Positions 19,222 through 52,436 of a stretch of DNA of 64,000 bases are shown here, piece by piece. How positions within the stretch are numbered: position 1 is the first letter of the stretch; each line of letters starts with the position of its first letter. A program made the position numbers and the translations under genes. The DNA is taken from positions 1 to 64,000 of IMG/VR virus record IMGVR_UViG_2582581306_000002; one strand, given 5' to 3'. Origin of the DNA: a virus (lineage: Duplodnaviria; Caudoviricetes). Under the pieces are notes generated by a model, which saw only the letters and a list, made by a program, of their open reading frames with translations, searched no databases and was not told the DNA's origin.

Positions 19222-19758
19222 TCAGACCTTGGCGATCTGCGCGGTGACTTCGTCCCGCAGTTTCTTGCCGCACATCGCGGCACCCAGTACCAGTGGAGCG
19301 AAGGCGAGCCGGGTGAAGTCCCATTTGCCGCGCTGCTGGATACCCAGCGTGCCCTGCACCTCGGCGTGGGAAAGAACGGTCTGAGGCGTCACCCCGATCT
19401 TGTAGCGCAGGCAGAGCTCGGCGACGACAATGATCATCTTGTCCCACTGCACCTTGGTCATGGGATGGTGGCCCGCATCGAACGGCTTTTCGGTTGCGCC
19501 CGCCATGCAGCACAGCGAAACACCGATGGAGCCGCCGTTGCAGTTCAGGGTGTGAGCGGCGTAGTCACCTTTGATCGGCCGTTCGTTCTGGGCGATGGTG
19601 TGGTCGCCCCGGATCAACTTACCGTCACCCTCGACGAGGATGTGATAATGCTCCTTGTCGACCGGGCCGGCCCTGCTGGCGCCGGCGGTCCAGTGACAGA
19701 TGACGCGGCTCATTTTCGCGTCGGGCATCCAGTCTTTGGGGATTACTTGCGTGATCAT
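19222..19758 (-). CDS. Endolysin, N-acetylmuramoyl-L-alanine amidase (Amidase_2)
   Basis: VICHWTAG, YHILV, AAHTLNCNGGSIGVSL, VLSHAE. Confidence 0.88.
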   Translation of the reverse strand: MITQVIPKDWMPDAKMSRVICHWTAGASRAGPVDKEHYHILVEGDGKLIRGDHTIAQNERPIKGDYAAHTLNCNGGSIGVSLCCMAGATEKPFDAGHHPMTKVQWDKMIIVVAELCLRYKIGVTPQTVLSHAEVQGTLGIQQRGKWDFTRLAFAPLVLGAAMCGKKLRDEVTAQIAKV

Positions 19759-19792
19759 GATGTCGGCTCCGTTGGAACCGCACCTCATGCGC
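19756..19792 (-). promoter_or_regulatory. Late-leader RNA switch, copy 1 (endolysin)
   Basis: GCGCAUGAGGUGC overlapping hairpin CGGUUCC-AAC-GGAGCCG that covers the SD. Confidence 0.7.
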
Positions 19793-19865
19793 AGGAAGAT
19801 GCCGTCTGAATATCACAACAAGCCTTATTGCAACAATCCCGCATTTGTCGTATTTAGAGGCAGTT

Positions 19866-19909
19866 GCGCATGACGTGCTGATGTCCCTTCCAGGAGATTG
19901 GCCCACATG
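19866..19909 (+). promoter_or_regulatory. Late-leader RNA switch, copy 2 (major capsid)
   Basis: GCGCAUGACGUGC; GCUGAU/AUUGGC plus UCC/GGA pairing covers AGGAG; upstream TTGCAA-N17-TATTTA. Confidence 0.7.
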
Positions 19910-21004
19910 ACCGCAACCACAATCGCATTTGGCGATCCCAAAGCCCAGAAAAAATGGTCTGGCTCCCTTTTCATCGACACCGTGAAGAAGTCCTACTGGG
20001 AACGCAAGTTCGTTTCCACGGATGACAACGCTATCATCCAGCGTCTCACGGATCTGGAATCGGCTGCGGGCGACCGTATCTCCTTCGATCTCTCGGTGCA
20101 GCTGCGCCAGAAGCCGACGTCCGGTGACAACCGGCTGGAAGGCAAGGAAGAAGGCCTGAAGTTCTTCACGGACGAGGTCAACATCGACCAGCTCCGTCAC
20201 GGTGTAAACACCGGCGGCAAGATGAGCCGGAAGCGCACCACGCACAATCTGCGCACCATCGGCCGCAACCGCCTCTCCGACTACTGGTCCAAGTACATCG
20301 ACGAGCTGAATTTCATTTACCTCTCCGGTTCCCGCGGTATCAACCAGGACTATACCGAAGAAGTCACCTATGCCGGTCACGCCAGCAACCCCATCCAGGC
20401 GCCGGACACCGCGCATCTCGTCTACGGCGGTGATGCGACGTCCAAGGCCTCGATCGACAGCACCGACACAATGTCGAAGGCAACGATCGAAAAGGCTGTG
20501 GTCAAGGGTCGCATGATGCGCTCGACCGATCCGACCACGGCAAACATGCTGCCGGTCATGATCAACGGCGAGGCCCACTACGTCTGCGTCATGTCGCCGT
20601 TCCAGGAGCACTCCCTGCGCACCGCCGACACCACGGGCTGGTTGGAAATCCAGAAGGCCGCGATTACGGCCGAAGGCAAGGCGAACCCGATCTTCAAGGG
20701 CGGCCTCGGCATGATCAACAACTGCGTGCTTCACAGCCATGAAAGCGTGATCCGTTTCTCGGACTATGGCGCCGGTACCAACCTTCCAGCGGCTCGCGCA
20801 CTGTTCATGGGCCGTCAGGCCGGTGTGGTCGCCTACGGTTCGTCCGGCGGCCTCCGCTTCACATGGACCGAAGAAGAGAAGGATCACGGCAACGAAAAGG
20901 TTATCGCTGCCGGCGTCATCATCGGTGTCAAGAAGTCCCGCTTCAACAGCAAGGATTTCGGCGTCACCGCCATCGACACCTATGCGGTCGATCCGAACGC
21001 CTAA
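19907..21004 (+). CDS. Major capsid protein, N4-gp56 family
   Basis: IIQRLTDLE..AGDRISFDL, GDNRLEGKEE.L, IDQLRHGV, ARALFMGRQA, KDFGV.AIDT. Confidence 0.92.
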   Translation: MTATTIAFGDPKAQKKWSGSLFIDTVKKSYWERKFVSTDDNAIIQRLTDLESAAGDRISFDLSVQLRQKPTSGDNRLEGKEEGLKFFTDEVNIDQLRHGVNTGGKMSRKRTTHNLRTIGRNRLSDYWSKYIDELNFIYLSGSRGINQDYTEEVTYAGHASNPIQAPDTAHLVYGGDATSKASIDSTDTMSKATIEKAVVKGRMMRSTDPTTANMLPVMINGEAHYVCVMSPFQEHSLRTADTTGWLEIQKAAITAEGKANPIFKGGLGMINNCVLHSHESVIRFSDYGAGTNLPAARALFMGRQAGVVAYGSSGGLRFTWTEEEKDHGNEKVIAAGVIIGVKKSRFNSKDFGVTAIDTYAVDPNA

Positions 21005-21017
21005 TCCGTAGCAGGAC

Positions 21018-21046
21018 GGTCCCGCTCCGGCGGGGCCAATTCTTTT
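21018..21046 (+). terminator. Probable intrinsic terminator after capsid gene
   Basis: GGTCCCGC-TCCG-GCGGGGCC followed by T-rich tract. Confidence 0.55.
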
Positions 21047-27326: not shown

Positions 27327-27387
27327 AAGGTCATACCTGCGTGCGGGAGGGCAAGCGCCCTACGCCCAAAGCTTTTGAAACCTCACT

Positions 27388-27425
27388 GCGCATGATGTGC
27401 GGGCCAGATTAAGGCTCGTGAAATG
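27388..27425 (+). promoter_or_regulatory. Late-leader RNA switch, copy 3
   Basis: GCGCAUGAUGUGC; UGCGGGCC/GGCUCGUG hairpin over the AAGG SD. Confidence 0.65.
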
Positions 27426-28580
27426 GGTAAAGGTTCATCTTCGGCCCCATCGCCGGACCCTCAGATCGGAGAAGCCGCCTTAAAGCAAGCCGCCCTCGGT
27501 GAGGAGTGGCTGTCATTTGCCAAGGATTCGTTCAAGGTCTCGACCGAGCGCCAGAAGCAGATTGATGCGACGACACAGAAAATCGTCGACCAGCAGTTTG
27601 GCGTCGCGAAAGATCAGGCGGCGTGGGCTAAAGAAGATCGGGATAGGTACTCCAAGACCTTCAAGCCCATCGAAGACGACTTCATCAAGGAAGCGACCAA
27701 CTATGCGACGCCGGCCAAGCAGGCTGAGGCCGCAGCGGAGGCTCGGGCCGATGTTCAGACCGCTGCGGCCACTGCGCGCGCGACGGGCCAGCGCGAGGCG
27801 ATGGCCATGGGCATCAATCCCAATTCGGGGAGGTTTGCCGGTGTACAGCGTTCGGGTGAGCTCGGTACGACGCTGGCCGAGGCCGGTGCGGCCAACAATG
27901 CGCGTACCGCTGTGCGCGACAAAGGCCTCGCCCTTAAAGCCGATGTTTCCAATCTCGGGAAAGGGTTGCCGGCACAATCCGCTCAGGCGGCCGCTCTCGG
28001 TCTCAACGCCGGAAATTCCGTCACCGGCAATATCAATGCCGCCAACGGACAATACCTCGCATCGACCGGTATCATGGGGCAAGGATATTCCGGCGCCCAG
28101 CAGGGCTACGCCAGTCAGGCGAATATTTTACAGAACCAGTACAACAGCCAGCTTCGCGCCTGGGAGGTGGAGCAGAACAGCGCGAACGCTGGCGCTGCTG
28201 GCATCGGTTCTGCGCTGGGCAGCATCGCCGGCATGTTTCGGTTCACGTCCGATGAGAACGAGAAGGAAAACAAGCGCGCCCTCGCCGACGGCGAAGCGTT
28301 GGATGCCGTCAACAATATGCCTGTTGAGGAATGGGATTATAAGGAGGGGTCCGGCGACGGCGGGCGCCATGTAGGTACCTACGCTGCGGAGTTCGCCCGA
28401 GAGGTCGGGGGTGATGGCAAATCCATCGATGTCATCTCTGCACTCGGCGTCTCAATGGGCGCAATCAAGGATCTCAGCTCGAAGGTGGATAAGATCGCCC
28501 AGCAGGTCGGGCTTGGTGGCCGAAAGCCTGCAAACAGCAACAGTGACAGAGCATATGGCCTGTCCGCAGGGAGGGCGTAG
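27423..28580 (+). CDS. Internal virion/ejection protein with C-terminal Peptidase_S74-like domain
   Basis: MGKGSSSAPSPDP start, Ala/Gln-rich helices, TSDENEKEN..WDYK..HVG.YA. Confidence 0.7.
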   Translation: MGKGSSSAPSPDPQIGEAALKQAALGEEWLSFAKDSFKVSTERQKQIDATTQKIVDQQFGVAKDQAAWAKEDRDRYSKTFKPIEDDFIKEATNYATPAKQAEAAAEARADVQTAAATARATGQREAMAMGINPNSGRFAGVQRSGELGTTLAEAGAANNARTAVRDKGLALKADVSNLGKGLPAQSAQAAALGLNAGNSVTGNINAANGQYLASTGIMGQGYSGAQQGYASQANILQNQYNSQLRAWEVEQNSANAGAAGIGSALGSIAGMFRFTSDENEKENKRALADGEALDAVNNMPVEEWDYKEGSGDGGRHVGTYAAEFAREVGGDGKSIDVISALGVSMGAIKDLSSKVDKIAQQVGLGGRKPANSNSDRAYGLSAGRA

Positions 28581-32374: not shown

Positions 32375-32405
32375 CAAAAAGCCCGCCGGAGCGGGCTTTC
32401 GTTTT
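32375..32405. terminator. Bidirectional intrinsic terminator
   Basis: AAAAAGCCCGC-CGGA-GCGGGCTTTCGTTTT between convergent genes. Confidence 0.8.
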
Positions 32406-39100: not shown

Positions 39101-42100
39101 GTAGCGTAGGCCGCAAAGGCTTCTGCCTCGACCTCGTGAGCCGTCATCTTCGCTGCCTGCTTCTCACGGCCGATCCGCTGCTGCACCATGCGTCGCAGAC
39201 GGCCAATTTCGGCCTTGAGGACAGCTTTCTCGGCATTTGACAGGAAGAGGTGCTGCAGGCGGTGGAAAGCCTCATGGTAGGCGTTCGTGGCGCTCGCCGT
39301 GTTTTCAGCGATGGCAATGACGTCCTGCCCGGGCGAGTAGAAGCCGCCGGCCGTCGTCGGCGTCGTCGTACCCCATGCTGCGGCGCCGTTCGGGAGGTCG
39401 ATGCGCTTCATCCACATCACATCGTTGAGGCCAGCGACCTTGCGGACGATGTCATTCACAGCTTGGATGTCAGCGGGGGAGCCGAGCCCTGTATCAGTGG
39501 AAGTATCGACATCTCCCCAGCCCATTGGGGCCGCGGCTTTGCGCTTTGGTGAGACAATTTTGACCCGGCTATCGTCGTAGATCACGTAATTGTAGGTGCC
39601 ATCTCCAGCATCGCGAGACGCGCCGTCGAGGAAACGGTGACCCGGGATGCCTGCCGCGCGCAATGCTTCGGAAGCCGCCTTGTCGGAGCCACGTTCCTTA
39701 ACGAGGCTTTCATAATAATCCTGAAAGGTTTGATCGAGGTTTAACCTGCCGGACAGCGCATTATTGAACTTTTCGCGAATACCTTCGAGCGTGGCACGCT
39801 GAGCCGGAGTGAGCTCGTACACAAGATCAAATTCTTCGTCTATGCCGAGGTCATCGCGAATGTAACGCTCTCCATGCTGTTGCCCTATTATATTGCCGGC
39901 AAGCGTGGAAAACCTTCTGATATCCGCTTTGGATGCCTTCCGAGCACCGGCTGGTGCCAACTTCTGAAGTATTTTCCGCACGCCCTCCGGCTGGTCCGAA
40001 ATATCACCATCCCACCATGCAAGTTCGCTATCCTCGGGAACATCGACCTCGAAAAGCTGCCCACCTCCCTCATGTTTGAGGTTTGCGCTTTTCAGCCAAT
40101 CCCGTCCGCCCTCGTAGAATGCCTTCATTCGGCCGGTGTCTGTTGCTGCAAACTGTTCGAGCTGCTCGATTGCCTCTGCAACACTCAGAACACCCAAGAG
40201 AGCATCCGTCCCGGCCTTCTCCTCGTTGGTCATTTTGGAGCGATCCAACGTTTTCACGTCGACGCCGTTGAGAAGGAAGCGACTGTTCCGGGTCAACATA
40301 CGCCTATAATGGTTCGCGACCTCCTTCTTGCCCGCAAAATAGAGGCCCCAACCGAACGACTGGTTGCCTTCGCCGGTACCAATCATCTCAGTGCTGAACT
40401 CATCGAAGTCTGAGCCTGTGCCATGGTAGGCCGCCTGAAACTCCGCATCTTCGGGCGGCTTTACATTCTCGGCAGCATCAACGTCTGCCGCAGACGACAT
40501 GCCGTCGAAGGCGGTGGCACGGGGATCGTATTTCACGCCCATGTACCAGGACTTCAAATAGGGCCGCGCGACGTCGCCGAGATCGGCCAGCATAGCCGTG
40601 GCAAATGCCGCGAAGGTGCGGGCGCCCTTTTCGATGTGATAACCGGCCAGCGTGACACCGGCCTGCAGGATTTCGGGATCGATGCCGCTGTTCAGCGTCG
40701 AGCCGGATAGTTTCTTGCGGAGCAGCGCGCGCGCCTTCTCCGCAGCGTCTTCGGTGAAAACGGTGTTTTCTGTCACCGGAAGTTTCTGCTTCGCTGGTGG
40801 CTTGGACGTCCGTGCCTCATGCTTCGCCTTCATGTCCGCGAGCGATTCCTTGAACTCCTTGCGGATCGCGTCGGCGAGCTGCTTGCCCTTGAGGACGATC
40901 CGGCGCTTGCCATCGTCCTTGTCGAGGATGAACGTGATGGCTGGCCCGGGGCGGGTCTCCACCATGTATTTGTTGCCACCGGCACCACCGGTACCGAATT
41001 TCTTCTCGACGAGCTCCAGCAGCTCCTTATCCTGCATTCCGGCTTTGACGGCTGCCGCGATGTCGTCATCGCCGCCATTGGTCTGGGTAAGGCGGCCAAG
41101 TGCATCGGAAATCGCATCATCTTCACTGCCCCAGACATCGTCCCAGGGATGATCGTCGGCGTTGAAGGCGCGCTTGACCTCTGGAACCGGCGTCTGCTCG
41201 ACGGTCGCCGCCTTTACCGACGGCGTGGCGTTAGTACCGCGCTTTCCTCCGACATCCCCGTTCCGAGGCGATAGTGAATCGTCGATGGGCACAGACCGAC
41301 CTGTTCCGCCCATGCTGTCAGGGTCTTGGTCTCCCCCCCGATCGTCATCATGTGGTTTTTCCGCATGTTGTGGGCTTGCTCCTTCTTTGTCGCCCAACGA
41401 AGGTTCCCCGGCTCGTAGTTTCCCTCGTTGTCTATCCGGTCCAGCTGATGTTTCGGTGTCGGCCTGTCCCCGACGATTTCCAGAAAGGTCGAGAACCTGC
41501 TCATCCTCGGATCTAGGGCGATCCCCCGCCCCCCGTAGTTGTGGTAGTACGGGCTCTTCGGGTTTTGCGTCCGGTCCAATATGTTGAGCCACGTCTTGTA
41601 CAGGGGATGCCTGCTCAGTCCGTGATATTCTCGCTGCCCCCTGGGGCGAGCGTGTTGCCTTGTCATCTTTGAGGAGTACCTTCAGGTCCTGGACCGACAT
41701 CTCAGTGATGTCGCCCATGCGGCGCGAAGCGGAGGCATCGGAAAAGCCCCGGCTGTAAATATCGACCGCGTCCGCACGATCTGATGCGCCAAGTATAACC
41801 TTCAACTCGTCGAAACGTCCAGTGTCCGGGTCGATCTGATCGACAACAAACGCAGGGTTCTCGTCGGAGATATCCGATGTTCCGGCTTTCACGTACAGAT
41901 CGACATGATCGCCATCGGCACCGGTGGTTCCCCTGAAATATCCGTAGTGCGCCGGCATCGTAACCGACCACGGTTTACCGTCTGGGCCTGTTCCCTTACG
42001 CTCCGAACCAACCGGATTTTCAATCGAAATATCCAGCCCACCCAGCCGAATGTGGCCCTTTTTGTAATTTCCTTCTTTTTGCTGTGCTTCCGTCGGCTCT

Positions 42101-45100
42101 GGAAGATCATTCAGTGGAGATGTCGCTGCAGCATGCGCCTCGGTGTCGACATTGGAGATCGCGTTAGCCGGTACCAAGGCGTTCAGTTTCTTCCTGACCC
42201 CGCCGGAATGACCGGCCCAATCCAGCTTTTCAGACCGTTTGATGCCGGCGGTATCGAGCACGACGCGACGCTCGTCCGGCGACATCGCATCCCACCAGAC
42301 CTGCGCCTCGTCGATCGGCGCCACTGGTTCGTCTATTGCGCCGCTGCGACGGTGCTCCGACTGCCACTCCTTCAGGCGCTTGTCGTTGACCGGCGGCATC
42401 TTGATCGCCAGTTTCGACCGGGCTTCCTTGGCGGCGCGCTCGACGCGGTACCGGAAGTCATCACTGAGCTGACCCAGTGCCTGCGAATCGATCTCGAACT
42501 CCTTGGCGAGCAGCCGCTGTTCCGCCGGCAGCGCCTCGTCCATGCCGAGTTGGCTGGTCCCCATGATCCGCTTGCTGGTCAGACGCTCCTTGCCGAGGTC
42601 GTAGAGGCGGGCATGCAAGGCGTCGGGCATGGACACCGTTTTGTCACCGAGACGGCGATCGGTGCCGGTCAGCACAGGCGTTTCCCGCTCGACCGGCGGA
42701 TTGCGCTTCAACTCCTGCTCTTCGACCTGCTTCGCATTGAGCTTGCTGACAAACAGCGCCGCGGCGGGCACCTGGTAGGATTGGCCTGCATCGTTGGTCA
42801 CGAGGACCTCGGTCGCGCCTTCCTCGTAGGAACCGACCTTGGCCGAAAACCTGCCGAGCTCCGGCGTATCGACGATGACGCGCTGACCCGGCTGCGGTGC
42901 CGACGGCAGTTTCTCAAGCGCAGGCATCTGCTCGCTACGTGGCGGCAATTCGCTGGTGATTTCACCGGCAACGGGCTCCTGCGGGCGCAGTGCCTCATCG
43001 TCCGAGGATTCGGGCAAAGCGTCGCGCGTCGGCAGCAACGAGCCCGACGGTGGTTTCGCGATCTCGGTCAACTGGCCCAGCGGGATCTGGTAGACCTCGC
43101 CGCTTCCGCTATCGACGACGACGGCCTCGTCGCCCTCGTAGCCTTCGACGGTCGCCATGAAGGGCTCGACACCGTCGGCATCGACGCGCACCGTGGCACC
43201 TTGAGCCGGACGGATGCCGCTCGAAGCTGCCGCAGCTGCTGCGACCTGCGCGCCGATACCATGCTCCTGCTGCTGCCGGACCGCTTGCGTTTCGCCGTGT
43301 TCCAGCGCTCGCGCAAGCGGCCCAGCCCGCCTTGCCCCCGCAGGCGGTGCCTGTTGGGTCGCTGGTGAAGCGACCTGTTCGTCGATTTCGTTGCTGATCT
43401 CGGCAGAGGCTGGGCTGATTGCCCCACCAGCACCACCCAGCCCGCCGCCCATGGCTGCGCCGGCAGCGAGCCCGCCCGCAGCTGCCTCCGCGACACCCTC
43501 GGTTAGATTTTGGCTTGGATCGACCGTCTGCACGGCCGCGTTTTCAGCGACCTTCTGCGATGCACTCTGTGGGAGTTCTTCGAGGATGCCCTCACCGGCC
43601 GCACCGCGACCGGCTCCAACCAGAAGACGTTTCGCGACGGTACCGCCGACGCCTTCCGCAATAATCTTGGCGAGAGCACGGTCACCAAGACCGCCGAATG
43701 CGCCGGTTGTTACACCGGCTACCAAAAAAGCTTGCGAGGCGGCGTCATCTGTTATCGAGGCAATAGCTTCGTCCGGCGACATTCCCTGAGAAATAAGTGC
43801 CTTGACGGAATCAGCCTCCAACAACTGATCGCGAGGTATCTCCGCGATACGATCGCGTACTTCTATCGCTGACTGTCCCCCTCCAAGGCCGCCCTCACCG
43901 ACGGCGCCAGCGACAAGCGCTGTCTTCGCGGCTGTTGCAGCTGCGGCCTTCTCGCCCAGGCCACCCACGATCGCTGCGGTGTAGGCACCCCGCGCCAAAA
44001 GCGCGCTTGGCCCCATCGTGGCCAGCGTGCTCGGTGCAGATTCGGCTATCGCGCCGAGGTAACTGTCAGGATCCGACCATGCAGGTCCAAGCGTACCCTT
44101 CTCGCTGTCCCACCACGTCTTGTTGTAGCTGACTTTGCCGGCCTCGGTGACAGATGCTCGGGCTGTCGTCGCGTAGTCACGGAGCCGCTGTTCAACAGGT
44201 TTTCCCGTTACCCACTCATCCACAGCGTCCAGACCGCCGACGATCGATGGACCGACCTTGGGTATCATTCCCACAACAGCGCGCACCGTTCGGCCCAGAT
44301 CTGCGTTCCCGGCACCAACCTTTCGGGCGAGGTCACCACCGCGACCAGTCGATCGGTTCTCTTTTTCCCATTCTGCCTTCCACGCCTCGTATTCCACCTC
44401 GGACATGGTGAGGTATTTTCCAGGCTCACGTGTATCTAGGGCTGCATGGGTCTCTTCTATCAGCTGATTTTCAGCAGCGACGCCTGCCCCAGCACCACCG
44501 GCGGCAGACCGAGCCTTTGCAGCCGCCTCGGCCTCTTTCACCGACTTGAAGCGCTCGAACGTCTGTCCGTTCGCCTGCTCATAGGCCTGCATTGTGCGAA
44601 GGATGTTGTCCTCGTCGCCGGCGTCGAACTGCACTGGCCCCTTTGGACCCATCCACAACGATGGGACGTTGACCCACTCGCCGCTTGGGAGCTGCCACGT
44701 GGTGGAAATCTCGGTCGAATAGCTGCCGTCCGCGTTCGGGCGCTGCTCGTCTGGCCTGAACGGTCGCAACTGGGCAGTAGATGCAGCCATTTCCTTGAAC
44801 GGATTGGCCTCACCGTACAGTTTCATGTCGTCTTTCGGCTGGAAGTCGCCGGAGACAGGGATACCGCCCTTTTCGGCGTTCGTCGTGCCTTCCGCCTGCG
44901 CGACTGCCTGCGGAGCCCCTCCTGCCGCGACATCCTGAAACCAGCGCGGAGCCTTGTTCATGTTCCTGTTGGTCTTGTCGTGCATGAACCAGGTGGAACC
45001 GTCTCCCTTCTGGTCCTTCAGATCGACGTGCAGCATGTCCGGTGAATCGGTATAGGTGATGAACCGCTTCGCACCGCGCGCGCGGAGATCCTGCACCAGT

Positions 45101-46131
45101 GCGGCCCGCTCCTGGTCGGACATGCCCTTCATGGAGATGTCGGACGCATCGCCGCGCGAATGTTCACCGGGGCCACCGGCCTTGGCAGCCTCAACACGGT
45201 GCTGCGGCGACCGGAAGCCGGAAAGCACGGTTAGATCGCGACCGAGCGCTTTGGACGAATCGACCAGGATGCTTTCGAACGCCGGCGCCAGCTTGTTCTG
45301 CTCCGGATGGCTGAAAAACAGTTTCCCGCCACTGCCGGCCGGCGCTTCCTCTTCGGGCCGCACCAGACGGGCAAGACCTTTCGCTGAAGGATTCGGCACA
45401 TAGCTGCTCGACTGGTCAGTTGCCGCCGCACGCGCCGCTGTCTCCTTGTCCACCGCCGCAAACGGGTCTTTGCCACCATAGAGCCCGAGGCCATCCTTGA
45501 CCTCGAACCCCTCGCCGATCGTCACGCCGCCCGCCGGCGCCGCAGCTTCCTGCCGCTTACCCGTGGACGAATAGTAGGTATGGCCGCCGATCTTCGTGGT
45601 CACCGGCATGGTCTTGGCCCAATCCGGCGACACATAGCCGGCATGGAAGTGATCAGCACCGCCGGTCGGGTCTTGCAGCGTGCCATCAAACACGCCCTGC
45701 ACGATCTTCTCCGCCTCGCTGCGGATCATGGGATTGCGCTGCGCTTCCCGGGAACCCTCACGCGGGTTTTCATAACCCTCGAACTGCGACGGCTGGCGAA
45801 CAACATCTGCTGGCGAGATACCGCGAGCTGCTGCCCGGTTCTTGATGACAGACGCGACGCCCACCATGCCCTGGGGACCGTCACCGGCCGCCTCGGCGAT
45901 GACGGTATCCACCATGTCGTTCCAATCCTTCGCGTCGAACGACGTGTTCTTGTTCACGACGCGGGATGGGAGCTCTTGTGTGTTGGTGCCAGGTGTCTGG
46001 GTGTTGACCGCGCGCGTCGTGCTCTCGGCAGGCTTCGGGTTCAGCCCGCCACCGCCATAGAGGCCGAGCGGGTCTTTGAACTCAGAAGCGTCCTTGGAAT
46101 TGCCGAGACCGATGACAATGGGGGGGGGCAT
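36118..46131 (-). CDS. Giant polyvalent virion protein (cell-wall hydrolase, M15-like peptidase, inorganic-pyrophosphatase-like, ART-PolyVal, metallopeptidase, PLxRFG domains)
   Basis: DPTGGADHFH; HSRGDASD..HVD; GNYKKGH..IENP..DGDHVD; AYHGT..GWGLYFA; HEAFH; YFPLGRFG. Confidence 0.9.
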   Translation of the reverse strand: MPPPIVIGLGNSKDASEFKDPLGLYGGGGLNPKPAESTTRAVNTQTPGTNTQELPSRVVNKNTSFDAKDWNDMVDTVIAEAAGDGPQGMVGVASVIKNRAAARGISPADVVRQPSQFEGYENPREGSREAQRNPMIRSEAEKIVQGVFDGTLQDPTGGADHFHAGYVSPDWAKTMPVTTKIGGHTYYSSTGKRQEAAAPAGGVTIGEGFEVKDGLGLYGGKDPFAAVDKETAARAAATDQSSSYVPNPSAKGLARLVRPEEEAPAGSGGKLFFSHPEQNKLAPAFESILVDSSKALGRDLTVLSGFRSPQHRVEAAKAGGPGEHSRGDASDISMKGMSDQERAALVQDLRARGAKRFITYTDSPDMLHVDLKDQKGDGSTWFMHDKTNRNMNKAPRWFQDVAAGGAPQAVAQAEGTTNAEKGGIPVSGDFQPKDDMKLYGEANPFKEMAASTAQLRPFRPDEQRPNADGSYSTEISTTWQLPSGEWVNVPSLWMGPKGPVQFDAGDEDNILRTMQAYEQANGQTFERFKSVKEAEAAAKARSAAGGAGAGVAAENQLIEETHAALDTREPGKYLTMSEVEYEAWKAEWEKENRSTGRGGDLARKVGAGNADLGRTVRAVVGMIPKVGPSIVGGLDAVDEWVTGKPVEQRLRDYATTARASVTEAGKVSYNKTWWDSEKGTLGPAWSDPDSYLGAIAESAPSTLATMGPSALLARGAYTAAIVGGLGEKAAAATAAKTALVAGAVGEGGLGGGQSAIEVRDRIAEIPRDQLLEADSVKALISQGMSPDEAIASITDDAASQAFLVAGVTTGAFGGLGDRALAKIIAEGVGGTVAKRLLVGAGRGAAGEGILEELPQSASQKVAENAAVQTVDPSQNLTEGVAEAAAGGLAAGAAMGGGLGGAGGAISPASAEISNEIDEQVASPATQQAPPAGARRAGPLARALEHGETQAVRQQQEHGIGAQVAAAAAASSGIRPAQGATVRVDADGVEPFMATVEGYEGDEAVVVDSGSGEVYQIPLGQLTEIAKPPSGSLLPTRDALPESSDDEALRPQEPVAGEITSELPPRSEQMPALEKLPSAPQPGQRVIVDTPELGRFSAKVGSYEEGATEVLVTNDAGQSYQVPAAALFVSKLNAKQVEEQELKRNPPVERETPVLTGTDRRLGDKTVSMPDALHARLYDLGKERLTSKRIMGTSQLGMDEALPAEQRLLAKEFEIDSQALGQLSDDFRYRVERAAKEARSKLAIKMPPVNDKRLKEWQSEHRRSGAIDEPVAPIDEAQVWWDAMSPDERRVVLDTAGIKRSEKLDWAGHSGGVRKKLNALVPANAISNVDTEAHAAATSPLNDLPEPTEAQQKEGNYKKGHIRLGGLDISIENPVGSERKGTGPDGKPWSVTMPAHYGYFRGTTGADGDHVDLYVKAGTSDISDENPAFVVDQIDPDTGRFDELKVILGASDRADAVDIYSRGFSDASASRRMGDITEMSVQDLKVLLKDDKATRSPQGAARISRTEQASPVQDVAQHIGPDAKPEEPVLPQLRGAGDRPRSEDEQVLDLSGNRRGQADTETSAGPDRQRGKLRAGEPSLGDKEGASPQHAEKPHDDDRGGDQDPDSMGGTGRSVPIDDSLSPRNGDVGGKRGTNATPSVKAATVEQTPVPEVKRAFNADDHPWDDVWGSEDDAISDALGRLTQTNGGDDDIAAAVKAGMQDKELLELVEKKFGTGGAGGNKYMVETRPGPAITFILDKDDGKRRIVLKGKQLADAIRKEFKESLADMKAKHEARTSKPPAKQKLPVTENTVFTEDAAEKARALLRKKLSGSTLNSGIDPEILQAGVTLAGYHIEKGARTFAAFATAMLADLGDVARPYLKSWYMGVKYDPRATAFDGMSSAADVDAAENVKPPEDAEFQAAYHGTGSDFDEFSTEMIGTGEGNQSFGWGLYFAGKKEVANHYRRMLTRNSRFLLNGVDVKTLDRSKMTNEEKAGTDALLGVLSVAEAIEQLEQFAATDTGRMKAFYEGGRDWLKSANLKHEGGGQLFEVDVPEDSELAWWDGDISDQPEGVRKILQKLAPAGARKASKADIRRFSTLAGNIIGQQHGERYIRDDLGIDEEFDLVYELTPAQRATLEGIREKFNNALSGRLNLDQTFQDYYESLVKERGSDKAASEALRAAGIPGHRFLDGASRDAGDGTYNYVIYDDSRVKIVSPKRKAAAPMGWGDVDTSTDTGLGSPADIQAVNDIVRKVAGLNDVMWMKRIDLPNGAAAWGTTTPTTAGGFYSPGQDVIAIAENTASATNAYHEAFHRLQHLFLSNAEKAVLKAEIGRLRRMVQQRIGREKQAAKMTAHEVEAEAFAAYATGVSTIKPHTALRAAWDRILKAIRQVQNFLQGRGFQTAEDVFDRAKSGAIAQRTPVSKPKVEATQFSIAEDSDRLIPTPGAIASALSGKLTDIQPAMLKTIPLNYFPELARPNMTAVGDYLRVKRLLDTYRGKKHEKAGEVVEQWRKVISTGYLGKDKSRAAQISSLMHDATLAGVDPSLTDAETIAKTGYDALRKQYLALPVKARELFSTVRDTYRQQAEELDQLLLDNVRKAQQIALDRAEADYQKNIADLDKKNLTAKTRKAKEAELATQYKEQKTRAQWTMKARMTKMRIAFENSRVPAPYFPLGRFGRYFVAVRDVDGETLYFSKHETAHERDQTATRVQKAYPAGTVKVGVTENSSELRQAMDPRIVAEIETLLGDAGAAPELQDAIWQRYLESMPELSARKRFIHRKGTAGYHEDAMRVFANALFHGAHQMGKIKYGLELQELTNKAKDQAEEADDQTRAMTLANELAKRHDWVMNPTGSEWAQWMTSVAFVYYLAASPAAAMVNLTQTVMLGVPILGAKYGGVAKSSAALLRASKDFVVSKGRLMGSSTTDDEKRAMEAFYESGLIDRTQSYDLAGAGQNGINQTSIRAKTMKVISWAFQQAEVVNRSVTALAAYRMARAAGRTEPDAIDAAHELTLKTHFDYSNSSRPAIMQNDFAKVALVFRQYQINYLYRVFRDIHQSLKGESAAVRKEARYQLAGVVGMMSLLAGVTGTIGFNLVMALASAIFGDDDDPMDFEQQFRKSVQDILGPELGGIVLNGAPGHYLGIDLTSRIGMPDLWFRSPSRDLQGKSEYEYWALQSLGASVSMIGQFWQGFSVIKDEGNVARGLEVAAPKFIRDLLKTYRYAQEGVTSARGDEILPANQIDYHDLVAQFLGFTPAKVAETWDRNISLKNAEQAILDKRRMLMNRFAMAVTMKDDEARKEAIADIKKFNAVPVNGPLAITAETLKRSLKTRARNAAKREDGVLIGNPALGKSLREKLPDPIYR
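41214..41666 (-). CDS. HNH homing endonuclease nested in the +1 frame of the giant gene
   Basis: HGLS..LYKTW...NP...YHNYGGRGI...F..F...GDRP...LDRIDNEGNYEPGNLRWAT..EQ..N...TLTAWAE..G. Confidence 0.8.
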   Translation of the reverse strand: MTRQHARPRGQREYHGLSRHPLYKTWLNILDRTQNPKSPYYHNYGGRGIALDPRMSRFSTFLEIVGDRPTPKHQLDRIDNEGNYEPGNLRWATKKEQAHNMRKNHMMTIGGETKTLTAWAEQVGLCPSTIHYRLGTGMSEESAVLTPRRR

Positions 46132-46169
46132 TTATGGCGGCTCCTGAGAAGAAGCCGCACGTCATGCGC
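46129..46169 (-). promoter_or_regulatory. Late-leader RNA switch, copy 4 (giant gene)
   Basis: GCGCAUGACGUGC; GCGGCUUCU-UCUC-AGGAGCCGC hairpin; upstream TTCCAA-N17-TATAAC. Confidence 0.75.
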
Positions 46170-46469
46170 GGTCGATGCGCAGTTATAGAATGAGCGGGAG
46201 CGATTTGGAAGCGCACGCCTTTGAACGATGTCAAATACGTGATGGTAACGTTAAAATTAACGATTGGTGCGCCGCTCGGCTCCGCCTATAGTGAGGGCAG
46301 GTCAGGGAAACGGAGTGCTGATAACACATCGATACCGTCCCCTGACCTTGGCGCTATGCCCGCAGTTGGCGAGAGGTGGATGCAACCATCTCTCGCCGAT
46401 TTGCTTGCTTAACATTATGCAGGCATTCCGACTGCGGCGCAAATGATATCATTGCCATTACATCGTGTG

Positions 46470-46504
46470 AAAAAGTGAAAGAGCCCGCCGTTGCTGACGG
46501 GCTC
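46470..46504 (-). terminator. Intrinsic terminator
   Basis: GAGCCCGTC..GGCGGGCTC then TTTCACTTTTT on minus strand. Confidence 0.7.
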
Positions 46505-47621: not shown

Positions 47622-47933
47622 TCAGCAGCGCCGGCGGACTTCGATGAAGTTCAGTGCGTCCGTCGCCATCGCTTCCGCGTATTCCGGTTTCAGGATGTCG
47701 ATACTTCGGTAACTGCCCGGGCGGGTGACGTCCGGCTTTTCGACCGTCGCGACGGCCGTCTCGATCAGGCTGAAATCGTGCACCATGACGGCGATGTCGT
47801 CGAACGGCGACGCCTGGTAGATGCGGAGCACGTCGTTACCGACATAGGCGGAGGCCGGCGCGGCGAAGACGAACATCGCAGCGATCGCCGCGAAGCTGGA
47901 TAGGATGAAAATTCGGAGAGGCATGCGGTTCAT
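47622..47933 (-). CDS. Secreted hypothetical protein
   Basis: Signal peptide ending APASA. Confidence 0.6.
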   Translation of the reverse strand: MNRMPLRIFILSSFAAIAAMFVFAAPASAYVGNDVLRIYQASPFDDIAVMVHDFSLIETAVATVEKPDVTRPGSYRSIDILKPEYAEAMATDALNFIEVRRRC

Positions 47934-47956
47934 GCGAAAGCCTTTCTGTATGGGAA

Positions 47957-48033
47957 TGGTTGCGGGGGTAGGATTTGAACCTACGACCTTCAGGTTATGA
48001 GCCTGATGAGCTACCGAACTGCTCCACCCCACG
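47957..48033 (-). tRNA. tRNA-Met (CAT), initiator type
   Basis: CGTGGGGTGGAGCAG...TCAGG-CTCATAA-CCTGA...GGTTCAAATCC...GCAACCA; C1:A72 mismatch. Confidence 0.93.
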
Positions 48034-48071: not shown

Positions 48072-50045
48072 TCAGGTGATGAAGCACGCAGACACGAGAA
48101 ACCGCTTGTCCGTCCCGGCCGATGACGGAAAGTCAGTGATCTGAAGATCGGTTGTCGTCACCCCAGACCCCATTGCCTTGAAATTGAAGCGGTCCGCGCT
48201 TGGCCCGATACGAGGCACAAATTGCGTAAACCCGGCCTTCGTCAATCCGGCGAACTCGAACGATCCTGATATCTGCTGCATGTCGGGAAACCCGCTTTCC
48301 GGCATACCTTCCATGCGGACTGCCCCGGTCGCAGTGCTGTATTCAAGCTTGCCGATCCATTCAGCGGTGACAAACACCAGCCTGCCAACGCGGATTATGT
48401 ATCCTTTAGGCGTCCCCGTTGGTGTGAGCGCCAAATCCCCCAGCACCGCGCAGCTGATCGTTGGTGTCCAAAGCGTTACGGTATTCGCCCCTTCCGCCAG
48501 ATCGAGAAGCGCCACGCTTTCAGCCGCCAACGCAAGAAGAGGCACGCGCTCCGCCACCAATTCGGCCTTCGGCGCATTGATCAGCGCCGCAACGTCAACG
48601 CTTATCGTTCGCACTGCGGCCGCCCGTATCGCGGTTTCCTTGCCGTAGGCCATCAGGGCTTTGCCGCTGTCCGGATTGATGAACAGCGACGGGTAGCCCG
48701 AGCTATCTAACAGTTCAGGGACCAGCGATATCTCAGAGCCCCAATTCGTGGGAGCTGCGAGAGCAAGGGCTGCCGTGGTCCAGCGGGCGCAGATCGCGTC
48801 CGGTGTGGGTGGCGGGCTACTCAGAACACTGCGAGCCATGTAGGTCATGAAGACGTAACGCACGCCGTCAACATCGATCACGTTCAGTTCATGCGACTGA
48901 TAGCCGCCTGATGCGGGCAGGTTCGTTTCGGCCGGCACGGACCACGTCACGCCGCGGTCGGAAGTCTTCGCTGTGCGCATGCCGCTCACAGCAGCATCGA
49001 CGCGAAGCAATGTGAGCCAGTTGTTTTCGTCAATGATCGCTATCGCCTGCTCAGAGAGCCCAGGCGATGCAGAAGTGGCGATAAGGTGCGCCGTCCAGCT
49101 CGTCCCTTGCCAGTCGTCAGAGACCACGACGTAATTGTCATTGCCGGTGTATATGCTTGCGACCTGATCGCCAGACGGCAGGATCTTGATTTGCCCGTAC
49201 CAGGCTATTGCTACGCTGGGCAGTCCAGATATGGCCATGACCTGCAACGGCGTCCAATCATCCTTGCCGGTGAGCGACGTGGTCTGATACCTCGTACGAG
49301 CGCCCGTGGTAACATCGAGGGTCGAGAAGATCGCGATCAGCGAGCCATCCTTGCGCCGCCCGAGCGCTGGATAGTAGAAAATCGTCTGCCCGTCCGTCAT
49401 GCCGTCGCCCAGGATCACCTCGTTGGGGAACGTCGCGCCGCCGTTTTCGCTCCATGCGTAGACGATATCAGCGGCGATGCGGAGGAGACCAACAGTAACC
49501 GCGCCGGCCGGATTGCCATCGACCGTCACCGATGTAATCGAATTCGGATCAATGCTGCCGACCAGAGTGACCGTCGAAGCGTTGCCGCCAGCTCCACTGC
49601 GAACGACAGGCACGCCGTTGAGAGTGCCGGTCACCGTGAAGATACGGCCCGTGTCATTTCCGGCAGACGTGACTGTTACCTCAGTCGCACGCAGGACGCC
49701 CGTCACGACGCCAGCAGTCGTCTCGTTGCCGTTGATGACAAGAGACTGCACGCCGCCCGCCGCTGGCGTCTGTGAGGCGCAGATGGCCGCCGTGTCGGAT
49801 TGCCCGTGATTGCGCCCGCGATGGTACAGCACGCCGACCACATCGAAGCCAGCGGCCAGAACCGGGAAATGTGAATACAGCCCGTCATCGACCAGCGCCG
49901 CAGCGGCCGGCACTTGTGGCCATTCACGTTGCCGCTGCACGGCGACGTCTGCGGCCCGCCCTTGTTCCTGTGTGGCGAAGTAGCTTGTGGGTTTCTGAGT
50001 GTTGCTTGCGCCGTTATAGAGCCCCTGCATCACGCTGGCTCCCAT
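48072..50045 (-). CDS. Tailspike-like protein with sialidase/BNR-type propeller
   Basis: Asp-box motifs SENGGATF, SDDWQGTSW, TSDRGVTWS; SGYPS. Confidence 0.65.
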   Translation of the reverse strand: MGASVMQGLYNGASNTQKPTSYFATQEQGRAADVAVQRQREWPQVPAAAALVDDGLYSHFPVLAAGFDVVGVLYHRGRNHGQSDTAAICASQTPAAGGVQSLVINGNETTAGVVTGVLRATEVTVTSAGNDTGRIFTVTGTLNGVPVVRSGAGGNASTVTLVGSIDPNSITSVTVDGNPAGAVTVGLLRIAADIVYAWSENGGATFPNEVILGDGMTDGQTIFYYPALGRRKDGSLIAIFSTLDVTTGARTRYQTTSLTGKDDWTPLQVMAISGLPSVAIAWYGQIKILPSGDQVASIYTGNDNYVVVSDDWQGTSWTAHLIATSASPGLSEQAIAIIDENNWLTLLRVDAAVSGMRTAKTSDRGVTWSVPAETNLPASGGYQSHELNVIDVDGVRYVFMTYMARSVLSSPPPTPDAICARWTTAALALAAPTNWGSEISLVPELLDSSGYPSLFINPDSGKALMAYGKETAIRAAAVRTISVDVAALINAPKAELVAERVPLLALAAESVALLDLAEGANTVTLWTPTISCAVLGDLALTPTGTPKGYIIRVGRLVFVTAEWIGKLEYSTATGAVRMEGMPESGFPDMQQISGSFEFAGLTKAGFTQFVPRIGPSADRFNFKAMGSGVTTTDLQITDFPSSAGTDKRFLVSACFIT

Positions 50046-50344
50046 GCCAGGCGGTCGCCGGGTTGGGAGAAATAGTCGACCGTCTCCTCCCGTGGCAGGA
50101 ACATCCGGGGGCTGACACTGGAATCGGGGTCCTGCTTGATGGAGATCCAGGCATCGACACTGGATCTGACGCGGAAGATAGGCTGTCCGTGAACGTCGCC
50201 TTCCCTTGGCGCTTCGCTGGCGGTTTCGCCGGCTACCTCAAGGGTCTCCGACCACACCCGCTTTATCATCAGCGGCTGGATCGAATCCTTGTAACCGCGA
50301 GCGCCGGCAAATCCGACAACGACGTGAAGGCCAACAAGAGGCAT
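50030..50344 (-). CDS. Small virion-associated protein (paralog of 52086-52403)
   Basis: G.HV..GFAG.RG..D.IQ....KRVWSET. Confidence 0.7.
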   Translation of the reverse strand: MPLVGLHVVVGFAGARGYKDSIQPLMIKRVWSETLEVAGETASEAPREGDVHGQPIFRVRSSVDAWISIKQDPDSSVSPRMFLPREETVDYFSQPGDRLAWEPA

Positions 50345-50377
50345 GTGCTATCTCCGAAGGGACAGCACATCATGCGC
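50342..50377 (-). promoter_or_regulatory. Late-leader RNA switch, copy 5
   Basis: GCGCAUGAUGUGC; AUGUGCUGUC..UUCG..GAUAGCACAU hairpin hides SD and AUG; TAGCAA-N17-TAATGT upstream. Confidence 0.75.
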
Positions 50378-50455
50378 GGGAACAGGCGGACATTAGCGCG
50401 GTTCCGGGGATTTTGCTAGACGTCGCATCCCCGCAGATGATCTAGGGGCGCGGGG

Positions 50456-51907
50456 TTATGCTAGCGCCAAGAAAGCATTGGCGATCGGCGGCGCAAGCAC
50501 TGACGCCAGCATGTCCATGCCAGTCTGGCCGGGATGTGTTCCATCCGTTGAAGTGTAGCCAGACCCGCCGCCTGTCAGGGTATATGCACCCGTTGCACGG
50601 AAGTCATAGAAGGCTACGCGACTGGTATCGGATACAGCGGCATATCCAGCCGCAATAGCTGTCGTGCAAGCATTGGATGATGTCGTGTCCGCATATGGGC
50701 TTATCCCGACGATGCGAACCTTCGGCAAAGCGGACAGCAAATCATTGAGACGTGCTGTCACCTCGGCGGTCAACCCTGCCGCGCCCTCTCCTGCGACAAT
50801 TGAAGCCCACTGAAACATATCGTTGATGCCGAGCGCAAGAACGAGCATGTCTGGCGCCTGCGCGATGATCGATGCGATCTCGGCAGAAAAGAGGCTCGAT
50901 CCTCTGATGAAGCCTTGCCCACTCGTGCCATACTGAACGAACCTCTCTTGCAGCCCGAGCATATAGGCCGATTGGCGGGTCCAGTTTCCGAACGCGTAGG
51001 AGCCATGAAGATTTTCGATGAAGCTGTCGCCGGCCATCATCAACTTGGCTTTGTCCGTGTTTTCGGGCCAGGGCAGGACGCTGACACCGCCGCCCACATT
51101 CAAGCCTGCGAACTTTGTTCCGAACCCGAGGATCAGCTCGACGGTGCGCATTCTCTTGGTAGTGTGAAGCTTGCCGAGAGCCACCGTAAATGTCGCGCCG
51201 GTACCAGACCCCGACGTTGATCCTTGTGACATCGTCGCGGCCGAAGCGGAATAGACGCCCAGACGGCAGATCGCAACAGATGCAACAGCACTGCCGCTGA
51301 GCGATGTCACGCGGACCTGCGCAGCGGTCGTAAATGCACCCCCGGCCAGCGTGATGATCTCACCAAGGGCATAACCAGTGCCGCCGGCAAGGACCACCGC
51401 ATTCGCAAGCTCGTAGCTCAGCGTGTCCGCGCCAAATTCATAGAGAACGAAGTGCTCGGTGTCGTTGTTCATTCCTGGGCTATCGACAGAGAAGCGGCCT
51501 TTGGAGACCGGCTTGCCGTCAATCAGCACCGTGTGCTGGCTTTGCCCGAGATAGGACTTCAATTTCAGATCGAAGGTTCCGTCAACGAGCCAGCGATACC
51601 TGACGCCAGCTTTGGTGCCGGCCTTGTAGCCGCTGCTGTCAACAAATGCGCCACCGAGTTTTGTCAGGCGTGTATCGTCACGACCGACACCAACGGAGGT
51701 GTTCCCGCTGATTGTGCTGTTGCCGCCGGCAGCTCCGGACGTCACGACCGGCGGGGACGCCATCACATCGGGGAAAGCGCCGAAACCGTTCAAGCCCAGC
51801 TTCCATCGGTGGAACTTCGACAGGCCGACATATGCCGCCCGCTCGACGGAGATATCGCCGCCGCTGAGGACTGGCGCCACATCGGCAGCAGCAACGTAAT
51901 TTGGCAT
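50456..51907 (-). CDS. SGNH/GDSL hydrolase-domain tailspike-like protein
   Basis: AGDSF, LGIND, DGTHP catalytic blocks. Confidence 0.8.
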   Translation of the reverse strand: MPNYVAAADVAPVLSGGDISVERAAYVGLSKFHRWKLGLNGFGAFPDVMASPPVVTSGAAGGNSTISGNTSVGVGRDDTRLTKLGGAFVDSSGYKAGTKAGVRYRWLVDGTFDLKLKSYLGQSQHTVLIDGKPVSKGRFSVDSPGMNNDTEHFVLYEFGADTLSYELANAVVLAGGTGYALGEIITLAGGAFTTAAQVRVTSLSGSAVASVAICRLGVYSASAATMSQGSTSGSGTGATFTVALGKLHTTKRMRTVELILGFGTKFAGLNVGGGVSVLPWPENTDKAKLMMAGDSFIENLHGSYAFGNWTRQSAYMLGLQERFVQYGTSGQGFIRGSSLFSAEIASIIAQAPDMLVLALGINDMFQWASIVAGEGAAGLTAEVTARLNDLLSALPKVRIVGISPYADTTSSNACTTAIAAGYAAVSDTSRVAFYDFRATGAYTLTGGGSGYTSTDGTHPGQTGMDMLASVLAPPIANAFLALA

Positions 51908-52089
51908 TATGCAGCCCTCGCTGTGAATATCGCGCCGTTGTCACGGCTGACCAGTGGTTGATTGTTGGTTCTGCTGACGAGAGCGTTCGGGGGCACCCCC
52001 GCGCCCGCTAAACGGTTGGCATCGAGCCCGACCATGTCGATGCGCTTTGGGAGGTTGATCGCAAACGTCGCAAGCAACCCGGCCATCAC
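51907..52089 (-). CDS. Small phage protein
   Basis: Translationally coupled on both sides. Confidence 0.55.
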   Translation of the reverse strand: MMAGLLATFAINLPKRIDMVGLDANRLAGAGVPPNALVSRTNNQPLVSRDNGAIFTARAA

Positions 52090-52403
52090 GGCACCAGGAT
52101 GAACGCGACCTTATCGCCCGGCTCGCACGGCTCGTCGAGGCGTTCGCCTGCCCGGATCAGGATGCGGGGATTTGCCGCCGCATTCGGGTTGGCACCGATC
52201 GCGATGTAGGAATCGGCCTGGGCGCTGATACGCAGGATCATCTGGCCGGAGCCCTGACCGCTCTGCGGCGCGGAGCCGACCGTCGTGCCTGGTGCTGCCA
52301 CCGTTTCCGACCAGACGCGCTTTTGAAGGATGGATTGGATGGTGTCGTTGGCGCCGCGCACGCCGGCGAACCCGGCTTCGACGTGAATACCTGCAAAGGC
52401 CAT
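52086..52403 (-). CDS. Small virion-associated protein (paralog of 50030-50344)
   Basis: GIHVEAGFAGVRG..KRVWSET..PGDKVA. Confidence 0.7.
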   Translation of the reverse strand: MAFAGIHVEAGFAGVRGANDTIQSILQKRVWSETVAAPGTTVGSAPQSGQGSGQMILRISAQADSYIAIGANPNAAANPRILIRAGERLDEPCEPGDKVAFILVP

Positions 52404-52436
52404 GTGCTCTCTCCGAAAAGACAGCACATCATGCGC
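52401..52436 (-). promoter_or_regulatory. Late-leader RNA switch, copy 6
   Basis: GCGCAUGAUGUGC; AUGUGCU-G-UCUU-UUCG-GAGA-G-AGCACAU; TGGTAA-N17-TAATGT upstream. Confidence 0.75.

Follow-up and report, generated by a model that had tools for sequence, protein, structure and literature searches.

The window, 64,000 nt of the 79,725-base provirus record IMGVR_UViG_2582581306_000002, belongs to a temperate podophage of the Bcep22/PBC5/Atu_ph08 kind, and the element considered here is a 13-mer, GCGCATGANGTGC, that lies shortly upstream of six of its genes. The pattern has six exact matches in the window, compared with a mean of 0.00 in 100 dinucleotide-preserving shuffles, and the whole record contains the same six matches only, with no match to a control pattern read backwards. 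A scan of the window found no copy with one mismatch, and copies with two mismatches occurred at chance level (14 versus 13.24 expected). All six copies are in sense orientation, and the distances from the end of the motif to the ATG are 21, 28, 22, 25, 20, and 20 nt in the order in which the genes are described below. Coordinates, strands, and sense orientation had been given exactly in the original prediction, and its spacing of about 20–30 nt corresponds to the 20–28 nt measured.

The endolysin gene (19222..19758, minus strand; phrog_5867, E 1.9e-42) is preceded by a leader at 19756..19795 (minus strand) that carries the motif at 19780-19792, the Shine-Dalgarno (SD) sequence GGAG, and the ATG at 19758-19756. 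On the plus strand, the major head protein gene (19907..21004; phrog_334, E 1.1e-127), which is the first gene of the plus-strand virion operon, follows the major capsid leader at 19863..19909 (motif 19866-19878, SD AGGAG, ATG 19907), and the gene of a virion structural protein (27423..28580; phrog_8003, E 3.1e-144) follows a leader at 27385..27425 with the motif at 27388-27400, the weak SD AAGG, and the ATG at 27423. The remaining three leaders are on the minus strand. One of them (46129..46172; motif 46157-46169, ATG 46131-46129) precedes a giant gene of the open reading frame (ORF) list, which encodes 3337 aa (36118..46131), and the other two head gene cassettes. Cassette 2, with its leader at 50342..50380 (motif 50365-50377, ATG 50344-50342), begins with a 104-aa gene (50030..50344), followed by a 657-aa protein at 48072-50045. 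Cassette 1, whose leader at 52401..52439 (motif 52424-52436, ATG 52403-52401) is of the same design, begins with a 105-aa gene (52086..52403), after which come an ORF of 60 aa and, at 50456-51907, a GDSL-domain protein of 483 aa. The 104-aa and 105-aa proteins are paralogues with 41% identity, and according to PHROGs and Pfam, one cassette contains a GDSL-esterase protein and the other a weakly BNR-like protein. The labels endolysin and capsid of the original prediction are thus borne out by PHROGs, while its terms "ejection protein" and "tailspike" are only plausible, as the hits are to a virion structural protein and to GDSL or weakly BNR-like proteins, respectively.

Conservation of the motif was examined in 80 related IMG/VR loci retrieved with the capsid protein, and in a genome set of 22 complete or near-complete relatives plus the window (23 genomes, 1.38 Mb). 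Three related loci that were reached via the protein beside a CsrA-like gene are distant and were left out of the counts. The exact 13-mer was present in 23 of the 80 loci, and a motif-family match at most 75 nt upstream of the capsid ATG was found in 76, representing 45 distinct leader sequences. Two of the four exceptions have a different hairpin with a GGA-containing loop: in these distant capsid relatives (L082:9956-9971 and L076:4000-4015), GGTGC-ATGGA(C/T)-GCGCC replaces the motif and forms a 5-bp hairpin, CACC is found just before the ATG, and the hairpin occurs as a single copy in a 21-kb locus.

Scanning the 23 genomes with the strict pattern GCGCA[ATG]GA[N]?GTG[CT] (in RNA terms, GCGCA-D-GA-(N)-GUGY) gave 78 matches. 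As many as 73 of them, in sense orientation throughout, precede an ORF of 60 or more codons at a distance of 19–46 nt from its start. In PBC5-like genomes, two matches include the initiation codon of an integrase-like gene, and another three matches are unexplained. The recurring motif-bearing classes are the capsid gene (21 genomes), the giant gene (13), and an "MGKG" virion protein (12), to which 27 other leaders add. The number of copies per genome ranges from one to six, with the window at the upper end, and 12-nt and 13-nt versions coexist in a single genome. Among named phages, Klebsiella phage LASTA and Pseudomonas phage Itty13 carry the motif as well. In Bcep22 it occurs as GCGCAGGATGTGC, reading GCGC-AGGAU-GUGC, with GCACATCC abutting the capsid ATG. 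An AGGA loop in the same hairpin is found in Bcep22 and in other relatives (for example G002, G014, and G027). These distributions support the view that the motif marks a conserved late regulon of several operons across a large phage group.

In the two PBC5-like genomes (G003, L117:961-972; G004, position 285), it is the 12-mer GCGCATGAGTGC that contains the ATG of the integrase-like ORF (MSALTDKQIKNAKK...). In the corresponding hairpin, the loop would include the start codon of the integrase, a hint that a single factor could act on integrase and virion genes in opposite directions. A near-copy, GCGCATGATGCGC or similar, is located inside the capsid coding region (20509-20521 in the window; for example position 17718 in G002). 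It occupies the same codon positions in many relatives and reflects a conserved peptide rather than a leader, and it is a decoy for motif scans. We also considered an upstream mini-ORF starting at the AUG within the motif and rejected it, as there is no conserved stop codon and the AGGA and AAGA versions have no AUG.

As RNA, the motif can form a small hairpin, termed P1, with the stem GCGC/GUGC including a conserved G.U pair and the loop A-U-G-A-N, which is often extended by one or two flanking pairs to a total of 4–6 bp. Covariation was assessed with 89 distinct sites including 4-nt flanks, using six pairs (four core and two flanking) and 500 shuffles. Of the P1 cells, 88.8% were paired versus 81.5 ± 1.1% in the shuffles, 44 cells showed double changes versus 20.9 ± 3.5, and the covariation score was 0.209 versus 0.102; none of the 500 shuffles reached these values, a comparison that is inflated by the relatedness of the leader sequences, and all slid registers scored lower. 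Rare full compensations (C..G, A..U) are found in the outermost core pair. Of the other three core pairs, one is invariant and two have each undergone a compatible change on one side (G-C for G.U; U.G for C-G). When RNAalifold was applied to the orthologous giant-gene and virion-protein leaders, it returned exactly P1 with its flanks. Judged from these patterns of substitution, P1 looks selected, despite its predicted absence at equilibrium (see below).

The predicted equilibrium structure is a different and larger fold that closes the ribosome-binding site (RBS). Each of the 73 leaders was folded from 3 nt 5' of the motif to 9 nt into the gene, z-scores were obtained with 100 shuffles of the spacer per leader, and RBS accessibility was taken as the unpaired probability of the stretch from -14 to +3 around the start. 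The mean minimum free energy (MFE) was -19.8 kcal/mol, and the z-score was below 0 in 73 of 73 leaders (mean -2.79) and below -2 in 52; in 55 of the 73, at most 5% of the shuffles matched the native sequence. The 3' arm of the motif pairs downstream with a probability of 0.87, compared with 0.41 in shuffles, and the RBS is unpaired with a probability of 0.28 instead of 0.49. In a set of 98 distinct leaders, motif positions 4–13 are paired downstream in 64–90% of cases, 82 leaders have two or more of their three AUG bases paired, and the partner of G7 is the base directly before the AUG in 52, which means that the CAUG of the motif pairs with the CAUG at the start codon.

The closed fold is varied, as some leaders contain a full complement of the motif, whereas in others the 3' arm is extended into an anti-SD hairpin. 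A MAFFT alignment of the 21 capsid leaders was dropped because the partner strands of 12-mers and 13-mers were out of register. Twelve-mers are paired with a gapless complement and 13-mers with a complement that is one base longer, and the base opposite the variable N9 was complementary in 13 of the 14 13-mer leaders with a partner defined by its flanks, these 14 being the only ones among 61 in which the partner could be located from the flanks alone. Native 5' and 3' halves fold better together than chimeras with halves from other genomes in 69 of 73 leaders.

For the six leaders of the window, MFE values range from -15.6 to -19.5 kcal/mol and z-scores from -1.25 to -3.77. The most stable fold is that of the giant-gene leader (-19.5, z -3.77, with none of 100 shuffles equally stable), in which the anti-SD GCGGCUUCU pairs with AGGAGCCGC. 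The endolysin leader (-16.8, z -2.31), the virion structural protein leader (-17.0, z -2.57), and the cassette-2 leader (-16.5, z -2.45), whose hairpin AUGUGCUGUC/GAUAGCACAU covers the SD and the AU of the AUG, are followed by the cassette-1 leader (-15.6, z -1.55) and the major capsid leader (-17.0), which has the weakest z-score of the six (-1.25). All five alternative SD-pairing hairpins quoted in the original prediction are present in the minimum-energy folds. Accessibility is lower at the RBSs of the six leaders than at 25 other gene starts of the window (0.29 versus 0.45; Mann-Whitney p 6e-4), some of these control starts being uncertain.

The original prediction had proposed that the motif hairpin and the RBS-occluding fold are mutually exclusive, and both folds are indeed supported, by thermodynamics as well as by covariation. 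When the four core P1 pairs were forced, at a mean cost of 7.9 kcal/mol, RBS accessibility rose from 0.28 to 0.57 on average and increased in 71 of the 73 leaders. With the extended P1 forced in the six leaders of the window, at a cost of 4.3–10.9 kcal/mol, the unpaired probability of the AUG rose from 0.01–0.27 to 0.37–0.99, and that of the SD from 0.10–0.52 to 0.36–0.72; the AUG of the endolysin gene, for instance, changed from 0.01 to 0.87. One could argue that no trans-acting factor is involved and that the structured 5' ends merely set mRNA stability or a fixed low level of translation, the motif being kept for initiation or folding. Structures at the 5' terminus do stabilize mRNAs, and the closed fold dominates the predicted ensemble. 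A passive structure, on the other hand, would not hold 12–13 nt invariant in phages of alpha-, beta-, and gamma-proteobacteria while the partner strand changes, nor would it maintain a competing P1 with covarying flanks, and we regard this explanation as improbable.

It was in principle also conceivable that the motif acts at the DNA level, as the binding site of a repressor or activator situated immediately downstream of the late promoters. A hexamer resembling a -10 box with at least five of six consensus positions lies 5–22 nt upstream of the motif in 38 of the 73 leaders, compared with 52 of 2000 random window positions, and in LASTA a TTTGCA-N17-GATAAT box is found 14 nt upstream. In the window, -10 hexamers scored separately gave one with five of six matches (TATAAC of the giant gene), three with four, and two with three; this TATAAC, the best -10-like box of the six, is 12 nt upstream of its motif. 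Based on the -10 spacing, the motif would lie at about +2 to +10 of the transcript. A motif 8–22 bp downstream of -10-like boxes could accommodate a roadblock repressor, and a temperate phage must silence its six late promoters. However, the motif is not palindromic, the leader copies are in sense orientation in 73 of 73 cases, 12-bp and 13-bp versions occur within one genome, the spacing to the -10 box varies by 14 bp, and a covarying complementary strand near the AUG has no explanation at the DNA level. A DNA operator is therefore very improbable in our view. The uniform orientation of the leader copies, the loop length that varies within genomes, the covarying partner strand, and the competition of two folds lead us to conclude that the motif is an RNA-level operator.

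A further feature was noted at 46443-46504 (minus strand), about 270 nt upstream of the giant-gene motif. Downstream of a hairpin that resembles a terminator lies the strongest sigma70-type promoter match of this region (TTCACA-17-TATCAT with TG). This may be a separate small transcription unit.

The best candidate for a factor that reads P1 is encoded at 53374..53598 (minus strand). The 74-aa product of this gene, the last of the terminase-portal operon, in which terS, terL, portal, an unassigned gene, and the CsrA-like gene form one minus-strand run ending at 53374, was assigned to the PHROG "CsrA-like regulator" with an E value of 5.1e-5. The window protein alone aligns to RsmE over residues 1–40 (E 0.1). 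Homologues were detected in 21 of 30 relatives with the window protein as query. The Pfam model detected them in 26 of 31 records, 4 of which exceeded its cut-off. A family-specific hidden Markov model (HMM) recovered the gene in the two genomes of the set in which it had still been missing, giving a CsrA-like ORF in 23 of 23 genomes. With the profile of these 23 proteins searched against structures, CsrA or RsmE accounted for nine of ten hits (E 1.2e-10 to 7.6e-5), and 17 of the 23 phage homologues match Pfam CsrA at E values up to 0.01. The ORF that the original prediction had singled out is thus a relative of the CsrA family that occurs in every relative examined. An AlphaFold2 model of the monomer (predicted local distance difference test, pLDDT, 80) shows five strands followed by a short helix; Foldseek with this model gave no CsrA or other meaningful match. 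The intertwined CsrA homodimer consists of five strands plus a C-terminal helix, and its swapped arrangement cannot be shown by a model of the monomer. In a public phage collection, the family is found in 62 records, all of them 55–64 kb among the matches listed, with the hosts Ralstonia, Burkholderia, Pseudomonas, Klebsiella, Erwinia, and Serratia and one Bacillus record. The CsrA-like gene is immediately adjacent to the first leader with a motif in many relatives, and in Bcep22, LASTA, and Itty13 the motif comes right after a CsrA-like gene that is annotated as such or homologous. The hairpin versions with AGGA are of the CsrA site type, which makes the CsrA-like protein the most likely reader. 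Its identity is nonetheless something that we infer, given that the loop is AUGA, that the C-terminal half of the protein has diverged, and that gene and motif share their descent.

Our proposal is therefore that each of six late transcription units begins with a cis-acting RNA operator whose core is the 13-mer. Transcription would start just upstream of the motif, and the nascent leader would fold P1 first. Left alone, P1 would be displaced by the much more stable closed fold, in which CAUG pairs with CAUG at the start and the 3' arm and the next bases pair with the SD, and the RBS would be buried by default. A phage factor that recognizes the invariant P1 nucleotides would capture P1, most plausibly during RNA synthesis, and thereby block the closed fold, so that translation of capsid, lysis, injection, and tail proteins would be turned on together. 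The most likely factor is the diverged CsrA-like protein. That some opener is needed follows from the most abundant late protein being placed behind a fold of about -17 kcal/mol over SD and AUG, and the invariant P1 nucleotides would be the evident handle for it. We give even chances to the proposal that the CsrA-like protein itself binds P1 and activates late translation. More tentatively, it could be a dedicated late translational activator rather than a moron, one that has abandoned the recognition of GGA. It would capture a nascent A-D-G-A(N) hairpin of 4–6 bp on up to six late messages and so set the timing of virion and lysis protein synthesis post-transcriptionally, one protein turning virion genes on and, in PBC5-like phages, the integrase off.

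A CsrA-family protein could also act in the opposite direction, as a repressor whose dimer reaches from the hairpin loop to the GGA of the SD and blocks the ribosome, which could delay or cap late synthesis or silence leaky transcripts. Leaders repressed by CsrA have a hairpin site and a GGA-bearing SD 10–25 nt downstream, a layout that the leaders described here resemble, and GGA is present in five of the six SDs of the window, the 27388 leader having only AAGG. In the PBC5-like relatives in which the motif contains the integrase start codon, only repression would be possible. The CsrA of phage JC1 is possibly a virion component, according to one peptide in the excerpted text of PMC9144972, and it might then act early. 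Against repression stands that the RBS is already buried without a protein, which makes a repressor redundant, that the capsid gene needs very high translation and yet has its SD and AUG in a -17 kcal/mol fold and hence calls for an opener, and that pure repression leaves no role for the conserved competition of P1 with the closed fold. We consider this reading unlikely.

Somewhat less likely still is that the switch is real and has another reader, such as a second phage protein, a host factor, or a sequence-specific endoribonuclease that parts the 5' strand from the RBS. Such a reader would fit the invariant nucleotides that neither fold alone explains, the window loop without GGA, and the window protein without the C-terminal RNA-binding region of CsrA, and the co-occurrence of gene and motif is confounded by shared descent. 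The annotated genes of the window, however, include no other candidate RNA-binding protein, the Com zinc-ribbon PF10122 has no match in the 79.7-kb record, the AGGA hairpins of relatives are CsrA-type sites, and the CsrA-like gene directly adjoins the first motif-bearing leader in many relatives.

Several observations weigh against activation of an RNA switch by the CsrA-like protein. The first group concerns the hairpin. P1 is nearly absent at predicted equilibrium (mean probability 0.009, above 0.05 in 3 of 73 leaders), so that a factor or co-transcriptional kinetics must be invoked. Its core pairs are nearly invariant and most covariation resides in the two flanking pairs, for which off-register controls pair about equally often (58 and 57 of 91 versus 57 and 62) because the flanks are C-rich and G-rich, and the shared ancestry of the leaders inflates the shuffle tests. 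The covariation across relatives that had been suggested as a check is seen for the P1 flanks and for the N9 partner, while the core pairs barely vary. The second loop base is U, G, or A, mixed within clades and single genomes, and we rejected the idea that loop type co-evolves with the CsrA-like protein on the basis of this mixture.

The second group concerns the closed fold and its opening. The capsid and cassette-1 leaders have z-scores of only -1.25 and -1.55, and the advantage of native halves over chimeras is small in the six leaders of the window (z -0.19 to -0.67). A covariance model, R1, built from 11 full-complement capsid leaders in which the helix is 90% paired and hardly varies, matched capsid and some giant-gene leaders of relatives (its alignment did not enter the counts) and none of the window's six, indicating that the closed fold does not have a single conserved architecture. 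If only the core P1 pairs are forced, the inner SD hairpin survives in five of the six leaders of the window, so that it is mainly the AUG and the base of the SD hairpin that are freed. The claim that protein binding to the hairpin "frees the SD" therefore holds insofar as forcing P1 opens the RBS, and is restricted by this persistence of the inner SD hairpin with core pairs only. As for transcription, a sigma70 consensus scan gave no site upstream of any of the six copies, and a single -10 hexamer reached five of six, in disagreement with the at least four sigma70-like boxes that had been claimed.

The third group concerns the protein. It scored 22 bits with Pfam CsrA (PF02599), below the cut-off of 27 bits, its C-terminal half does not align to CsrA, and every loop in the window reads AUGA(N) and lacks the GGA that canonical CsrA requires. 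Gene and motif co-occur inside a single lineage of phages, so their joint presence is not independent evidence. Taken together, the regulon as originally predicted is supported by an RNA-level element, mutually exclusive folds, a conserved late regulon, a CsrA-family ORF, and no Rfam counterpart, with weak sigma70 boxes and an SD that is only partly freed on the other side. The leader element is real, conserved, and probably new, and the mechanism is what we infer from it.

The leaders do not correspond to any Rfam family. At gathering thresholds, Rfam returned two tRNAs only, and at E values up to 5 nothing was found at any of the six leaders over 19700-52500. Sub-threshold hits to rsmX (24.9 bits versus 56), a CsrA-sponge small RNA (sRNA), and to istR at 32375-32469 (minus strand) were rejected, since they cover a gene end and a strong intrinsic terminator and are likely due to chance. 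A tRNA-Met (CAT) is located within the late region between cassette genes (47957-48033, minus strand), and the mechanically called ORF 47622-48032 is doubtful because of its overlap with it.

If the proposal is true, it would assign a function and a cognate RNA target to the CsrA-like genes of Bcep22-like, PBC5-like, Lastavirus, Ittyvirus, and related phages. Phage timing devices are mostly late sigma factors, activators, and antiterminators, and a post-transcriptional "late switch" would join them. It would represent a CsrA-family protein acting as a regulon-wide activator on a site without GGA, and a compact protein-RNA ON switch conserved in phages of alpha-, beta-, and gamma-proteobacteria. 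Being short and modular, and apparently not dependent on the host, the element would lend itself to use as an orthogonal translational switch.

Our literature search turned up no account of the motif, nor of phage leaders as targets of a phage CsrA. The "CsrA-like regulator" genes Bcep22 gp54, JC1 gp47, and LASTA gp20 are of the same family as the window gene and have the same position after the portal gene. In the excerpts of the published accounts that we consulted, such genes are described as morons whose role is not known or as possible manipulators of the host or of CRISPR, with no cognate RNA site among the descriptions (PMC9144972; PMC8450108; PMC7366521). Specifically, as far as the excerpted texts go, the JC1 report lists its CsrA-like gene as a moron with a single virion peptide and mentions neither promoters nor hairpins (PMC9144972), mobile elements may exploit RsmA to repress CRISPR-Cas (PMC8450108), and a chromosomal csrA is reported to be absent from B. 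cepacia, B. cenocepacia, and S. meliloti (PMC7366521). Two other "morons" of the Lessievirus phage JC1, an acyl-CoA N-acyltransferase gene (26835-27326, plus strand) and a PAPS-reductase-like gene (61626-62693, minus strand), are syntenic in the window along with csrA, which argues that these are core genes of the group.

Among characterized systems, the operators of CsrA, RsmA, and RsmE and the CsrB-type repeats (RsmE-hcnA, PDB 2jpp; glgC) are alike in having a hairpin with an A(N)GGA-type loop near the SD, and here too a CsrA-family gene lies alongside. The Bcep22 motif contains CAGGAUG, which is the consensus of the CsrB repeat. They differ in that the window loops read AUGA without GGA, that the putative reader is phage-encoded with a diverged C-terminal half and would target the phage's own late mRNAs, and that the default state of the RBS in the window is closed, suggesting activation where repression is usual. 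Activation by CsrA is known from ymdA and moaA of E. coli, where CsrA binding stops the formation of an SD-sequestering structure; the prevented sequestration is the same, whereas those are single host genes with GGA sites and not a late regulon of a phage. The BglG/SacY antiterminators and their RAT hairpins share the principle that a weak 5' hairpin has one arm in common with a stronger structure and wins only when held by a protein, although there the outcome is terminator read-through rather than RBS opening and the protein family is unrelated. The regulation of mom by Com in phage Mu is similar in that a late gene is locked by an RBS-sequestering stem and a small phage RNA-binding protein binds 5' of this stem, and an RBS in an inhibitory stem that competes with an upstream candidate protein-binding hairpin is predicted for the leaders described here as well. 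Operator and protein family are unrelated in the two systems, and a single gene is controlled in Mu, compared with up to six operons in the phages of the present group.

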